Assembly: GCA_963699755.1 (NCBI GenBank)
Contig: CAVOVB010000001.1
Span: forward strand, 1,760,105-1,824,104
Reading direction: 5' to 3'
Origin: an uncultured delta proteobacterium
GTDB lineage: Bacteria; Myxococcota_A; Polyangia; Polyangiales; Houyiibacteriaceae
Length of the DNA: 64,000 nt
The notes below the pieces were generated by a model that did not search any database, was not told where the DNA came from, and worked only from the letters and a program-made list of their open reading frames with translations. The position numbers were made by a program, and so were the translations under genes. This document shows positions 36,233 to 43,415 of the stretch, one piece after another (the stretch's first letter is position 1; every line of letters begins with the position of its first letter).

Positions 36233-38155
36233 CTAGTGTCGGCCGTCCGCGTGACAGCTGAGGCAGAAATTCGCGGGCGCGGCGCCCGCCGGATAGTTGT
36301 TCACCTCACGGTGCTTCGCGTCCATCCGGGAACGCGTGTGCTCGCCGTCGTGGCAGCCGACACAGTCGGCGTTCTCACCGCCCACCGGCGAGCCGAGCGC
36401 CGCGTTGTGGCAAGATGCGCAGTCGTTTCGGTATCTCGAGTGCGCTCCTGATTGGATCCGGAAAGCGTTCTCGGGGTGGGTCCCACCGGAGGCGGGAGTC
36501 CAGGCCGCCGTCGTGTGGCAACTCAGGCAGTCGCCGGTGGCGGGGTGCGTTGGCGTCGCGGGGCGCTGCGATTCGTGACAGTCATAGCAGCGCGTTGGCT
36601 CCGGAACATGTGCGAACGTTGCCGGAGTCCAGGTCGGATACGAGTGATGACAGCTGGCACACTCGGGGTCGTACGTTTGCGCATGAAATGGGGTGTTCGA
36701 CCTGGGCTCGTTTGCGTGACAGCCAATGCAAGCGGCCGGAAGCGGCGTGTGCGGCGCGACTGGATCGGCGAGTGCCCAGTCGTTCACGACGTGACAGCCG
36801 GCACAGTCCCCAAGCCCCGCGGCCGATTGATGCGTTGGCGTCGCGGGTCTCAGATCACTGTGGCACGCGTTGCAGGCGTTCGGGATCGGCGCGTGCAAGA
36901 AATCAGCCGGCGTCCAACCCGGGTATTGATGGTGACAGCGGGCGCACTCGGGCTGGGCGATCTGGGTGTGGAAGATCGTAGTCTGTCGCGGCTCGTTTTG
37001 GTGACAGGACACGCAAGACGCCGGAAGCGGCGTGTGGAGCGCGACCGGGTCGGCTGTAGCCCAGCTGGTGTGACGATGTGGCAGGAGGCGCAATCGCCCT
37101 GGCTCGCCGCGGTTTGGTGCGTGGCCGTGTTGGGTCTCTGATCGGAGTGACAGTCTACGCAGGTGCCAGGCACTGGCGCGTGGAGGAAATCAGCCGGTGT
37201 CCAACCTGGATATTCATGATGGCAGCTGGCGCACTCGGCGTCGAAGACCTGGGCGTGGAAGATCGTCGGTTGTCGCGGCTCGCTTTGGTGACACGTCAGG
37301 CAGGATGCCGGGAGCGGTGCGTGAAGCGTGGCCGCGTCGGTGACGGCCCAGTCGTCCACGACGTGGCAGCGGGCACAGTCCGCGAGGCCCGCGGCCGATT
37401 GATGCGTTGGCGTCGCGGGTCGCAGATCGCTGTGGCATGCGTTGCAGGCGCTGGGCACTGGCGCGTGTAGAAAGTCTGCTGGTGTCCAACCCGGGTAGCT
37501 CCGGTGGCAGCTGGCGCATTCGGCCTCGAACACCTGAGTGTGGAAGATGTTCTGCGGTTGCGGGTCGTCTTGGTGACAGGTCAGGCAGGATGCCGGAAGT
37601 GGCGTGTGCAGCTCCGCCGGGTCGGTGAGGGTCCAGTCGGTGACGATATGACACGAGGCGCAGTCGCCCAGTCCTTGCGGGGATTGGTGCGTGGGCGTGT
37701 CAGGTCTTCCATCCGCGTGACAGTCTAGGCAGGTGCGCGGCACCGGCGCGTGGAGGAAGTTCGCCTGTGTCCAATCCGGATAGCTCCGGTGACAGCTGGC
37801 GCACTCGGTCTCGACAATTTGCGGCATGGAAGCTCGTCTGTGGTCGCGTCTCGTTTTCGTGACACGTCACGCACGATGCCGGAAGCGGCGTATGAATTGT
37901 GGTGGAGACCGCGGGGATCCACTCGCGTTCGGTGTGGCAATCCTGGCATGTGCTCGGGAGGGAGTCGTGCGGTGGGTTGATCGCTGCCTTGAGGTCCGCC
38001 GCGTGACACGTGACGCATTCGGCTTGACGGACCGTTCGCCGGCTCATGCTCGATGCTGCCGGCCCCACTGCATCGCCACGCCCATCGATACGGCTGGCGC
38101 TGATTGCGACGGCCGCCGCAATGTGACCAGACAGGCGACGGCAGTTAACCCTCAT
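36233..38155 (-). pseudogene. 25-haem c-type cytochrome with five tandem four-haem modules, frame-disrupted twice
   Basis: Track ORFs 37700..38155, 36850..37827 and 36233..37093 join into a single 1923-nt reading unit with 3+11+11 CxxCH motifs. Breaks lie near 37823-37825 (..TSFH / AQIVETECASCH) and near 37064-37069 (..CASCHIVT / SWATADPVALH). The first and last segments share a frame. Confidence 0.78.
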
Positions 38156-38313
38156 GGCGTATATGATAAGCCGATCAATTCACCCTGTCAGGTTAATTCA
38201 GCGGCCGCGTGAGACCGCAGCCTAGAGGCCAAAATAGCCTCAAAAACCTTTTCTTTCCAGGATGTTAGTAGCCTTGCCAAACCGGGGGACCCGCTACCGG
38301 GGTCCGATCTAGG

Positions 38314-39038
38314 ATGCTACCTTTCGAGGAATCCATGATCCTTCCCGGCCGAGCGGCAATACGAGCTCTGATCTTCGGAGCGTCGGGCGCGGTGCTGCTC
38401 AGCGGAGCGTGCACCGGCGGGACGCAGGACCACGATCGTCTGCAGGTTCGAGGCGCCGATTGCATCGTCTGTCATTCCGACGATGTTCAGCATGCGCTTG
38501 AACCCACCTCATGAAGGGCTTCCCGGACACCTGCGGAACCTGCCACGGTCAAGAAGCCTGGTCGCCTGCCGCGTTCACGCACACCTGGCCGCTCGTCGGC
38601 GCGCACGAGATGCTCGCCTGCAGCGCATGCCACGTCGGGGATCCACCGGTCTACCAAGGCACGCCCACACTCTGCGTCGGCTGCCATCAGGACGATTACG
38701 ACAACAGCCCCTTCCCAGGTCACGCCGACTTCCCAACGACCTGCGAGAACTGCCACACGACGACCGCCTGGACGCCCGCGGTTGGGGGTACACACCCCGA
38801 GAACGCGTTCCCGATTCAAAATGGCGCACACTCTCCCTATCGCGACGATTGCGTGTCCTGCCACAACCCGGATCTTGGCTCACCCGTGAATGGAGAAAAC
38901 GCGGACTGCGTCGGCTGTCACGACGGCGAGCACACGCGAGCCTCGATGGATCCCAAGCATCGCGAAGAGCCCGATTATCCACAGGGTGCGGCGCCGCCCA
39001 ACTTCTGCTTGGATTGTCACGCGGACGGTCGCAACTAG
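38314..39038 (+). pseudogene. octahaem c-type cytochrome lipoprotein, frame-disrupted twice
   Basis: Signal peptide plus lipobox (AVLLSGAC) and CIVCH in ORF 38314..38514. LNPPHEGLP appears in the frame of ORF 38483. DTCGTCH... and six more CxxCH are in ORF 38511..39038. Breaks lie near 38496-38500 and at the CCC run near 38522-38525. The junction sequence parallels AINPPHDSLPSTCQDCH in the divergent 25-haem gene. Confidence 0.72.
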
Positions 39039-40960: not shown

Positions 40961-41892
40961 ACCGCGCGCTGTTCATCGTCCTGTTCATCGTTTTGGCCGT
41001 CGTCGCTCTCGCCGGCATCGCCGGACTGGCCATCGCCAAAGACCCCGAGCGGAACGCTGCGCGAGCCAGGGCCGCCAGCCACAACTCGATTACCGAAGGG
41101 CTCGATTGCGGCAACTGTCACACGCCGGCGAGCTGGAAGATGATGGGCGGCAAGTCAGGCGAAGGCTTCGACCATTCCCGCACCGGCTTCCCCCTCACGG
41201 GGAGACACGAGCCCGCTGCCTGCAATCAGTGTCACAGCGGCGAGCGGCGAGTGACGAGGGAGTGCGGAGCATGTCACGAAAATCCACACCAAAAACGATT
41301 GAGCGGTCGATGCGACAGCTGCCATTCGTCTCGACGATGGAATGACCTCGAGGCGTTCGAAATCCATCGCCGAACGCGATTTCCGCTGACGGGTATGCAC
41401 GCTCTTGCTGCTTGCACCGAGTGCCATCTTCGCAACGGGGAGAGGCAATGGACGACGGTTCAAAGCGACTGCTTCTCCTGTCACGCGGCAGAGTATCTGG
41501 ATCCGAGCGTTCATCCGAATCACCGAGGCACGGGTACGTCGCCGCACTGTCCCACAGGATTGTTCGCAGTGTCATACGGCGCGCGCGTGGAGCCCCGCGT
41601 TCATCGACCCGACGAACATTGCACCGCTCGCGTCGACCGGCGCCGTCAGCAAGGGGATCGGCGGCATGGTCGATGCCCGCCCGATCACGACAGATATTTT
41701 CCGGTTTCTCGCGGGCCGCACCGCGGGGCTCCGTGCAATAGCTGCCACACCTCGGCTCGAACGCCTCGCCTGGTCCGCTGCACGGGGTGCCATGCGCACA
41801 ACGCGGTCAAGCTCCAGCAGCAGCATGGAAGGCGCGTGTCGAGCAGCGGCGTCTCGTGCCTTGGCTGCCACCCCGGAGGAACCGCGCGATGA
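40957..41892 (+). pseudogene. membrane-anchored decahaem c-type cytochrome, frame-disrupted twice
   Basis: The internal ATG at 40957 gives MNRALFIVLFIVLAVVALAGIAGLAIA. There are nine CxxCH in the frame of ORF 40834 and one (CSQCH) in ORF 41405's frame. Breaks lie near 41536-41552 and near 41675-41682 (..VDARP / DHDRYFPVSRGPH). Confidence 0.7.
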
Positions 41893-43415
41893 CGCGGACC
41901 TGGTTCGGGAGCGCTGATTGCATGCACGGCCCTGTTCGCCGCAACTTCGGCGGCCAACGCAGCATCTGGTCGCAGAGTGAGCGTCAAAGTCGTCGACATT
42001 GCGGGCGGACGCGCCTATCTGACGCCAGGCGAAGCCGCAGGGGTCGCGAGTAGGCTCCGTCGTGGTTCTTCGTGATCGTCGCTATCGCGTGGTTGGGGCT
42101 ACGGGCAAGCACGCGGTCATCGAAATGAAAGGACGTGAGCTTCGAGTTGGGCATGACCGGCCGAGCAGAGGCCAAGCTCAAACGAAGCGCCAGCGCATCC
42201 CTTCCCAAACCCAAGCCACTTACGGCGTACGAGAGCCAATGGCCAGAGCCGGTGCTTCCCGCCACGCGGCAGACGCCCGAGTACGTGCCGCTTGGTACTT
42301 CCTCCGGCGGGGATCGAATCGACCTAGCGCTTTCGACCGATGTCGGTGGGACGATTGCGCTGAGCGACGGGGAGTCCTTTGGCCGCGCATCGCTGCGCGC
42401 GCGGCTCCACGCCGAGCCTTTTGCCCAACCCGTGTCCTTCGACGTCGGCGTCGGACGACTCGATGGGCTTCGTGTGCGCTCCCCATCATGGGGTGGCTTC
42501 ACCATCGGCGCGTTCGGTGGCACGGTGCCCGACCCGCTCGACTATTTGCCGACTCTGGATACGACGCGCTTTGGGGCAGAGCTTGCATACCAAAACGAAT
42601 CGCTCGATGCCCAGCCGTTCGTGGGCCTGTCCGTCCACGCTTCGACGTTCATGGGCGACATCGACGAGCGACGTCTCAATCTGGAGTTCGACGTCTTTCC
42701 GGGAACCGGCCACGTCGCAGGGCACATCGAGCTCTCCATGCACGACGAGGTCAACCCTTGGCAGGCGCCGCGCTTCGAAGTGAGCGCCGCTGGCCTCGAT
42801 GCATCGATTCGTGTCGGCATCTTTCAGCTTGCTGGCCGTTTCGACATGCGGTTGCCCGAACGCTCGCTCTGGCTCACCTCGTACCTGCCCTTGGGGTACT
42901 TGTGCAACACCGTTCCTGACCCAGCCGCTAGCACCGGGGACGAGGTCGTGTGTCTCAACAGCAATGACCAGCGATACTTCGGTGGCTTGGATGCGAGCTT
43001 CAGTTTTTCACGTTTCGCACTGCATGCGGGGGCCAACATCGTGCACAGCGAGACCGCCGCTGAATTCGAGCAAATCTCTGGCTACCTGCAGGCCCGCATC
43101 TTGCGTATCGCAGACATTGCATGGGCGGACGTTTCGGTGGCTGCCTACGCACGCTCGTTCGTATCCGACTATGCGGCGCGTCTCGGAGCAGGGGTGGACA
43201 TCCGGCGCATCGGTGAAATATCCGCGTACTATCGGGTCTCGCTCAATCAGTATGTGGCGTCCCCGACGAACTGGTTGCAGCATTCGGCCGGCGGTATCTT
43301 GTATTTCGCCCTCGGGCACGACCTCGACCTCGGTGTGCGCGTCGACGGAATCTTCGGCGAAGATGTCAGCGTGCTCGTGCTCGGCTCGAATCTGACTTGG
43401 CGGCCGTCCTGGTGA
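41889..43415 (+). pseudogene. putative outer-membrane beta-barrel protein, frame-disrupted three times near its 5' end
   Basis: ATGA overlap with the decahaem gene. Reconstructed N-terminus: MTRTWFG ALIACTALFAATSAANA (signal peptide), VKVVDIAGGRAYLTPGEAAG / SRVGSVVVLRDRRYRVVGATGKHAVIEMKGRELRVG / MTGRAEA..., then the 426-aa ORF 42135..43415 with alternating-strand character ending ..NLTWRPSW. Breaks lie at GGG near 41907-41910, GGGG near 42040-42043 and GGG near 42149-42151. Confidence 0.55.

Follow-up and report, generated by a model that had tools for sequence, protein, structure and literature searches.

A 64-kb window of contig CAVOVB010000001.1, from an uncultured delta proteobacterium, was analysed here with respect to a group of multihaem cytochrome, flavoprotein, membrane protein and beta-barrel genes at positions 36233-43415. 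This segment is probably a copy, disabled only recently, of a seven-gene module conserved in Myxococcota of the Polyangiales type (genes A, B, C, X, D, E and F below), whose intact form is most plausibly a porin-cytochrome conduit across the cell envelope with an unusual point of entry at the inner membrane. As assembled, the locus cannot encode a working conduit. An earlier reading of the letters alone (the sequence-only reading) had proposed a trans-envelope electron conduit of six adjacent genes at this place; the proposal is supported for the gene family, which combines a predicted 22-strand barrel with conserved synteny, and fails for the copy in the window, which is broken. The evidence came from scans of the window, from relatives that carry the module intact and from a base-by-base alignment with a sister genome, L013 (metagenome-assembled genome (MAG) MFD09964.bin.1.42), in which the module is complete.

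A six-frame scan of the window found 51 CxxCH motifs, of which 47 lie between 36265 and 41857; about 0.4 would be expected for a stretch of that size from the density outside the cluster. The earlier count of 47 motifs in about 7 kb, divided as 25, 8, 4 and 10 among the haem-carrying open reading frames (ORFs), was thereby reproduced. The other four comprise two chance antisense matches within the MMPL gene and two motifs in a dihaem cytochrome c near 54 kb. The haem ORFs match the cytochrome c3/c7/Paired_CXXCH families of Pfam, and the C-terminal trihaem pattern ascribed to the cytochromes is common to A, B and E. The ATGA overlaps said to link the last three ORFs are present at 40957-40960 (D/E) and 41889-41892 (E/F), and the last ORF ends in RPSW, so that its aromatic terminal residue is Trp.

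The genes themselves fared differently. The CxxCH motifs of the cluster fall in changing reading frames, and among the six genes proposed only the oxidoreductase remnant is a clean single ORF. In tblastn searches, all flanking genes gave single full-length matches, whereas every cluster gene was fragmented or truncated and, set against the relatives L002, L006 and L013, the uninterrupted co-linear ORFs of an intact cluster were not found. The sequence-only reading had also missed the boundary between X and D: its membrane domain with an attached tetrahaem module consists of the remnants of two genes, brought together by a 1509-nucleotide (nt) deletion. A fusion protein of X and D is ruled out, as the remnants lie in different frames. 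The features of the cluster are as follows, with lesions given relative to L013.

36233..38155, minus strand: remnant of gene A, a probable surface lipoprotein multihaem cytochrome; 25 CxxCH motifs in three frame segments (ORFs); +1 insertions at 38092, 38073, 38035 and 37822, +2 at 37068, and one 285-nt (four-haem) unit fewer
36735..37896: tandem repeat within A, 4.1 copies of 285 nt; the unit encodes about 95 amino acids with four CxxCH motifs
38314..39038, plus strand: remnant of gene B, an 8-haem probable lipoprotein cytochrome; +1 insertions at 38496 and 38519 divide it into two ORFs (66 and 175 codons)
39035..40099, minus strand: remnant of gene C (codons 84-437 of 437), a flavoprotein of the TrxR/YpdA type with flavin adenine dinucleotide (FAD) and nicotinamide adenine dinucleotide (phosphate) (NAD(P)) domains
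40099..40100: junction of a 503-nt deletion, which took codons 1-83 of C, the 72-nt divergent intergenic (promoter) region and codons 1-60 of X
40100..40601, plus strand: remnant of gene X, which putatively encodes an inner-membrane protein with two b-haems (about 300 residues, of which 61-228 are left)
40601..40602: junction of the 1509-nt deletion, which took X from residue 228, the spacer and codons 1-412 of D (16 of 20 haems)
40602..40960, plus strand: remnant of gene D, the last 119 codons of a 531-residue, 20-haem periplasmic cytochrome; 4 CxxCH motifs
40957..41892, plus strand: gene E, a decahaem cytochrome whose hydrophobic N-terminus is an anchor or a signal; +1 insertions at 41549, 41670 and 41679
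41889..43415, plus strand: remnant of gene F, an outer-membrane beta-barrel protein; +1 insertions at 41907, 42047 and 42147, and an in-frame 153-nt deletion at 42443

The native ORF of A ends after 151 codons, and its three N-terminal +1 insertions scramble the Cys-containing end of the signal peptide. The remnant of C keeps the second iron-sulphur (Fe-S) motif only, the N-terminal membrane helix and the first motif having been deleted. The X remnant retains helices 2-4, including the W-x3-H-x13-H motif of helix 3 and the TGxxG motif of helix 4; helix 1 and helix 5 (W271/H275/H289) are missing, so two of the four haem-ligand histidines are gone. The D remnant has lost both its start codon and its signal peptide. 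The ORF of E is open, but about 43 of its codons are scrambled and its seventh CxxCH motif is out of frame. The native ATG ORF of F ends after 54 codons, and the 153-nt deletion takes approximately residues 185-235 (51 residues, 14 of them invariant), which correspond to strands 3-5 of the 22; the window's own F product has only 420 amino acids, against 556-558 for nearly all full-length homologues. Even without the small insertions, the three large deletions put C, X, D and the shared promoter region out of action and impair F.

The intact form of the module was found in relatives. In L002 (= L008), the flanking genes are those of the window (MMPL, TP_0789-like, a 539-residue protein and YgaP-like on one side; WS_DGAT, ABHD18 and TetR on the other), and seven intact genes lie between them.

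A, minus strand: 379 amino acids, 14 haems
B, plus strand: about 230 amino acids, 8 haems
C, minus strand: 437 amino acids, Fer4 and Pyr_redox domains
X, plus strand: 304 amino acids, membrane protein
D, plus strand: 531 amino acids, 20 haems
E, plus strand: 305 amino acids, 10 haems
F, plus strand: 558 amino acids, barrel

A scan of species-representative genome contigs, made with a profile from a 15-sequence barrel alignment, gave 25 loci; C, X, D, E and F each had one full-length tblastn match in at least 15 of them, and C-X-D-E-F was found intact in Illumina and nanopore MAGs alike. Across the intact relatives, A carries 14-29 haems, B 8, D 20 and E 10 (in L013: 29, 8, 20 and 10), and B is a single ORF with 8 CxxCH motifs in L013, L008, L014 and L022. 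The 120 homologues of the barrel ORF came from Polyangiales, Myxococcales SG8_38, Sandaracinaceae and "Deltaproteobacteria" MAGs. Among 1.84 billion proteins, the barrel family comprised 563 representatives (clustered at 50%) at E ≤ 1e-3 and 139 at ≤ 1e-30. Synteny in relatives had been named as a check on the conduit proposal, and the gene set proved to be syntenic in each of the relatives examined, including distant loci (barrel identity of 28-39%, X about 50%) whose flanks are unrelated to those of the window; X, a cytochrome of 580-610 residues, one of 300-350 residues and the barrel lie together there, with C and further cytochromes nearby. Since the same gene set recurs amid unrelated flanks, the module is real, conserved and mobile as a unit.

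On aligning the window with L013, it was found that the flanking genes p539, YgaP, ABHD18 and TetR are 99.1-99.5% identical, with zero indels. The cluster, in contrast, differs by -503, -1509, -153 and -285 nt and by 13 small frame-shifting insertions, of which 12 are +1 and one is +2 (at 37068). All 13 fall within the cluster, at 37068-42147; given an alignment that covers about 7.0 kb of the cluster and 5.0 kb of coding sequence in the flanks, the probability of this is about 1e-3. The insertion sums are a multiple of three in four of five groups. The 503- and 1509-nt deletions are identical when scored against a second close relative, L006. The 285-nt change in A is the only large event that lies in a tandem repeat; neither repeats nor useful microhomology were found at the junctions of the other three, which rules out repeat-mediated deletion or assembly collapse as their source.

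The substitutions speak against slow natural decay. Polarised with L008, those of the window lineage in C, X, D, E and F comprise 58 synonymous and 8 non-synonymous changes, and the genes were hence under purifying selection almost until the present. The cluster as a whole diverges from L013 by 3-9%, against less than 1% in the flanks (34250-36250 and 45000-47000); the differences are mostly synonymous and at third positions in both lineages, so neutral decay was ruled out as their source. Divergence climbs smoothly into the intact WS_DGAT gene (12%) and falls sharply to less than 1% at about 45000, which is the signature of a recombined tract and not of decay. The stretch at about 42500-44900, which covers the C-terminal half of F and WS_DGAT, is 10-12% divergent from L013, mostly at synonymous sites, with a sharp edge at the WS_DGAT/ABHD18 boundary, and looks like an import by recombination.

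The same alignment admits a different explanation, in which the organism has an intact, working cluster and the breaks come from the consensus of a nanopore-only metagenome, at low local depth or over mixed haplotypes, as could arise if the cluster is wholly absent from part of the population. The closest relatives come from the Microflora Danica nanopore catalogue (Flye --meta, one Medaka round), and the window contig probably stems from a nanopore-only Flye/Medaka catalogue likewise. Several features of the lesions weigh against a natural relic and fit such an artefact. Each of the 13 small events is an insertion, in most cases away from homopolymers. They all lie in a segment (36286-42506 of the window) that is missing from the deletion alleles of the L029/L035 type, as a drop in depth in a polymorphic population would give. 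The ratio of 58 to 8 means far too few random changes alongside 13 natural indels, and is ill-suited to a relic that arose through natural decay. Taken together, the pattern of insertions and substitutions suits nanopore consensus error, at low or mixed depth, at least as well as mutation, which would then be very recent. L006, a 6.5-kb nanopore contig, has private 1-nt indels too. One of these, a frameshift near the end of D, merges D and E into a single ORF of 831 amino acids (3893-6388); such contigs mislead gene calls. Simple homopolymer error was ruled out, since most insertions are not in runs of more than 2-3 bases.

What speaks against the artefact is chiefly the large deletions. Losses of 503, 1509 and 153 nt in unique sequence, with junctions free of repeats, are atypical of consensus error, and long reads span distances of that size. 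The locus lies within a 1.95-Mb contig whose 5 kb of flanking coding sequence is free of indels, and in other nanopore MAGs from this catalogue a 20-kb locus has no more than one or two frameshifts. Independent deletions at the same locus in other genomes show that loss does occur. In L029 (5443-6618) and L035 (9164-10765), only the C-terminal part of F is left between YgaP and WS_DGAT. In L001 (40-788), the tail of A is joined to residue 84 of X; A, B, C and the N-terminus of X are gone and D-E-F is intact. In the sequence of L026 that was examined, only residues 232-558 of F (2311-3291) are left. This chromosomal site has thus lost the module independently at least three more times, which supports a real loss in the window as well, and the module is dispensable and often shed. 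It was concluded that the three large unique-sequence deletions are very probably real and that their being artefactual is decidedly unlikely, while an artefactual origin of most of the small insertions is nearly as plausible as a genuine one. An assembly artefact as the explanation of the whole locus is considered unlikely, and a disabled copy of a conserved module remains the preferred reading.

The case for a conduit starts with F, for which the sequence-only reading had proposed a beta-barrel. An intact orthologue was modelled with AlphaFold2 from 70 sequences (mean predicted local distance difference test (pLDDT) score of 85.6). The model shows a signal helix, a small beta domain at residues 28-94, a poorly ordered linker and 22 long antiparallel strands at residues 143-554, and the chain ends in W; one loop carries the invariant pair C389/C405. 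The orthologue is thus predicted with high confidence to be a 22-strand beta-barrel. Foldseek matched the model to outer-membrane barrels only, among them the PapC/FimD usher pores, MOMP, the OccK porins and OmpU, at template-modelling (TM) scores of 0.3-0.5; MtrB was not among the top 50 fold matches. Even at E ≤ 10, the only Pfam matches of 15 F homologues were two weak ones to Porin_4, and the searches of NCBIfam and, with a profile, of the PDB sequences gave none. F represents a new outer-membrane protein family that has no Pfam model.

X orthologues have 265-307 amino acids. Across 40 sequences, W106, H110, H124, G148, G151, W271, H275 and H289 are invariant, and they form the motifs W106-x3-H110-x13-H124, T147-G148-x-x-G151 and W271-x3-H275-x13-H289, where T147 is kept in at least 90% of the sequences and replaced by S in some. 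In the AlphaFold2 model (pLDDT of 86), five long helices are accompanied by a helical insert of about 70 residues at 163-229. The earlier guess of a DUF4405 or b561-like protein was right at a sub-threshold level: among the 40 members, 39 matched DUF4405, 20 cytochrome b561 and 13 Ferric_reduct, with matches to Ni_hydr_CYTB as well. The best DUF4405 match had an E-value of 2.4e-7 (one member), and member P0147 scored 14.6-19.4 bits against cut-offs of 26.7-30.1. Binding of haem b by DUF4405 has been shown experimentally (PMC11334425). The two W-x3-H-x13-H motifs imply, as judged from the sequence, that X is a putative carrier of two b-haems stacked across the membrane.

C had been read as an FAD/NAD(P) oxidoreductase with a ferredoxin remnant, which agrees with the domain matches of the window copy: Pyr_redox_3 (PF13738; 124.7 bits, cut-off 30), Pyr_redox_2 (PF07992; 98.2 bits, cut-off 26.1) and a lone Fer4 remnant. 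The flavodomain aligns over about 260 residues with PDB 7a76, 7a7b, 3ab1, 2zbw and 5ygq. Its nearest solved structures are YpdA/Bdr and the ferredoxin-NADP reductases (FNRs) of the TrxR type (E of 1.4e-20 for 7a76 and 2.1e-18 for 7a7b); it falls below the NCBIfam equivalog cut-offs (YpdA, 134 bits against 340). In intact relatives, C begins with one hydrophobic helix followed by basic residues, continues with two ferredoxin motifs, of which the window copy has the second only, and ends in a flavodomain that lacks the CxxC of TrxR. The ferredoxin motifs are non-canonical, CIGSGACxxxCP and C[IV]GH[GS]ACxxxCP, and 21 of 22 homologues keep them. In one motif Ser takes the place of the second Cys, and in the other His does (L002 5153-6466 and 20 other loci), which suggests [3Fe-4S] or Ser/His-ligated clusters. 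In L014, two copies of C (1840-3150 and 5170-6480) lie about 2 kb apart and are 77% and 86% identical to that of L002.

The cytochromes A, B, D and E have 25-30 residues per haem (about 26 in D and 30 in E), as in wire-like cytochromes. Inspected by eye, D carries a signal peptide, and the signal peptides of A and B end in Cys, as is typical of lipoproteins. The N-terminus of E consists of 24 hydrophobic residues ending in AIA-KD and may be either an anchor or a signal. The haem number of A varies by whole units of 285 nt (95 amino acids, four haems), from 14 in L008 (3128-4270) through 25 in the window to 29 in L013 (1981-4206).

The module was compared with described systems. As in MtrCAB, MtoAB and PioAB, the gene of a decahaem cytochrome (E, 305 amino acids) directly precedes the barrel gene, with which it is translationally coupled, in the same order in all relatives; probable lipoprotein multihaem cytochromes are encoded alongside, which recalls the haem wire of MtrCAB in its outer-membrane barrel sheath. 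F nevertheless lies outside MtrB_PioB (PF11854, TIGR03509) and has 22 predicted strands, whereas MtrB has 26. E has no match to the DmsE/MtrA model (TIGR03508), for which A and D remain far under the cut-off, and electrons would enter through a putative di-haem-b protein and a flavoprotein rather than through a quinol dehydrogenase of the NapC/CymA type. Membership of MtrB/PioB or MtrA was ruled out by the Pfam, NCBIfam and PDB sequence searches. With the Geobacter systems (OmaB/OmbB/OmcB and Ext), the module shares a periplasmic multihaem cytochrome, a porin-like protein and a lipoprotein multihaem cytochrome. The haem numbers are unlike, however, and only weak ExtN/ExtO matches were obtained, from the N-terminal part of A and from a short segment inside D (E of about 1e-3 to 2e-4; cut-offs of 200 bits). 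The Geobacter inner membrane uses quinol oxidases of the ImcH/CbcL type.

X resembles PF01794, MsrQ and DUF4405 proteins in its four conserved histidines, placed on two helices with 13 residues within each pair. It differs in having five helices and the insert of about 70 residues, and does not reach the Pfam gathering scores. The supply of electrons proposed for C and X, from NADPH through FAD, is that of NOX/FRE enzymes; there, the flavin/NAD(P) module is a fused domain of the FNR fold, whereas here it stands alone as a membrane-anchored protein that has the TrxR/YpdA fold and two Fe-S motifs. The output also differs, being a multihaem chain and not oxygen or Fe(III) directly. Like the TrxR-type FNRs and YpdA, C carries Rossmann motifs for FAD and NAD(P) and lacks a CxxC disulphide; unlike them, it also has a ferredoxin domain of two motifs and, at its N-terminus, a membrane helix.

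The closest described systems are the PCC3 and PCC4 porin-cytochrome clusters, themselves predictions, which were made for neutrophilic iron oxidisers and other Proteobacteria (PMC5566968; Gallionellaceae pangenome, PMC9900912); the likeness was assessed on published motifs and gene content. Their inner-membrane protein has about 300 amino acids and five helices, of which helix 4 bears SGxxG and helices 3 and 5 each bear W-x3-H-x13-H (PMC5566968). X agrees in size, in helix number and in every motif, with T or S as the first residue of xGxxG, and the barrel and large periplasmic and putative extracellular multihaem cytochromes are likewise encoded with it. PCC3 has a periplasmic cytochrome of 21-27 haems and an extracellular one of 10-35 haems built from repeats (PMC9900912); PCC4 includes a decahaem cytochrome, and in its subgroup II a gene for an Fe-S protein stands beside that for the membrane protein (PMC5566968). 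In contrast, the carriers here are Myxococcota and not Proteobacteria, the module has both a 20-haem and a 10-haem cytochrome plus two lipoprotein cytochromes, and the 22 strands predicted for F compare with as many as 42 transmembrane regions reported for PCC3 porins (PMC5566968). The membrane-anchored FAD/NAD(P)/2Fe-S flavoprotein is always present here and lies outside the published definition of PCC3. The sequence-only reading could name no described system of this composition; that holds for the flavoprotein partner, which is new relative to PCC3/PCC4, and is otherwise too strong, as these share the porin, the large cytochromes and a protein of about 300 residues with the motifs of X. In the literature searched, no Myxococcota system of such composition was found.

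From the anatomy of its components a path can be proposed for the intact module. C, on the cytoplasmic face, would take electrons from NAD(P)H through FAD and two Fe-S clusters and hand them to X, whose two b-haems would carry them across the inner membrane. E (10 haems) and D (20 haems, long enough to bridge the periplasm) would receive them from X, in an order that may be either, and the F barrel would be the crossing point of the outer membrane. A (14-29 haems) and B (8 haems), as probable surface lipoproteins, would form the endpoint and meet the physiological acceptor. C and X are taken as partners because C co-occurs with X-D-E-F in every complete locus examined, in any gene order, and has a membrane anchor of its own. 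Tentatively, the intact module may be a quinone-independent conduit fed by NAD(P)H, a counterpart of NOX/FRE in bacteria with two membranes, in which a membrane-anchored flavoprotein with two unusual Ser/His-substituted Fe-S clusters passes electrons to a di-haem-b protein and on to about 50-70 c-haems and barrels of a new 22-strand family, and which Polyangiales of soils and sediments have repeatedly gained and lost at one site.

A number of results weigh against the interpretation as a conduit. The fold matches of F are to generic barrels at low TM-scores, and its sequence matches neither MtrB/PioB nor any Pfam family or PDB chain. All Pfam matches of X stay below the gathering scores, and its model gave no significant PDB fold match with Foldseek (none better than E 0.5). 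E matched no NCBIfam family at E ≤ 0.01, and D and A reached 42 and 36 bits with the DmsE/MtrA model, against a cut-off of 192. The functional steps of the module are all inferred. Moreover, inner-membrane proteins like X have been proposed to exchange electrons with quinones (He et al. 2017; PMC5566968). If X does so, C is left without a role.

This last point leads to the reverse direction, in which electrons would be drawn from Fe(II), Mn(II) or reduced surfaces outside the cell and flow inward through X to the quinone pool, with C as an accessory. Multihaem chains can carry electrons either way. The motifs of X are those of the PCC3/PCC4 inner-membrane protein, which was modelled as a quinone-reactive cytochrome b in iron oxidisers (PMC5566968), and PCC3 too combines a periplasmic cytochrome of about 21-27 haems with an extracellular one of variable size (10-35 haems; PMC9900912). 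However, the constant presence of an anchored C with X-D-E-F is hard to reconcile with an accessory part, and reduction of NAD(P)+ by electrons derived from Fe(II) would be uphill, with no coupling device visible. The carriers, as far as their taxonomy labels tell, belong to heterotroph lineages of the Polyangiales type and are not known lithotrophs. Inward flow was judged unlikely.

The cytochromes could also have no extracellular function at all and serve as a periplasmic electron store or as a reductase of soluble substrates, F being a substrate porin encoded in the same operon. The locations of all components are predicted only, the fold matches of F include the substrate porins OccK, OmpU and MOMP, and a capacitor function has been suggested for large multihaem proteins (PMC9900912). 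Against this, F is coupled to E by the ATGA overlap and stays with D-E down to 28% identity, and its 22 strands and extra N-terminal domain exceed the diffusion porins of 16-18 strands. The lipoprotein-type signal peptides of A and B also point outward, and no catalytic domain was found in the cluster by the Pfam and NCBIfam scans. A purely periplasmic role is accordingly held to be very unlikely, and an envelope-spanning conduit with outward flow is favoured for the intact module.

To our knowledge, all well-studied trans-envelope conduits (Mtr, Pcc) draw on the quinone pool, and the phylum Myxococcota is better known for predation and aerobic heterotrophy. If the proposed path is true, an NAD(P)H flavoprotein and a di-haem-b protein would wire metabolism to the outside in a different manner, one that bypasses energy conservation and would be suited to balancing the redox state, acquiring iron or surviving on humics and minerals. 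The hypothetical inner-membrane protein of PCC3/PCC4 would then gain a testable partner. A count of haem motifs alone would have rated a dead or mis-assembled locus as a working system.

Some other genes of the window were also noted. Upstream of the cluster, at 30941-36211, lie an MMPL/RND transporter (893 amino acids), a TP_0789-like protein (LolA-like, 269 amino acids), a protein of 506 amino acids with an acidic N-terminal stretch, for which Pfam and NCBIfam gave no match, and a YgaP-like membrane protein of 66 amino acids. This MMPL-YgaP set is syntenic in close relatives and unlinked to the cytochrome module in distant ones. At 19069-21345, on the minus strand, a molybdopterin oxidoreductase of 758 amino acids with an N-terminal Fe4S4 domain adjoins a protein of 729 amino acids with tetratricopeptide repeats (TPR). 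A nor-like set is encoded on the plus strand at 53870-58660, consisting of a dihaem cytochrome c (PF00034 and PF13442), a COX1-family protein of 455 amino acids, an AAA protein of the CbbQ/NirQ/NorQ type and a VWA protein of 649 amino acids.

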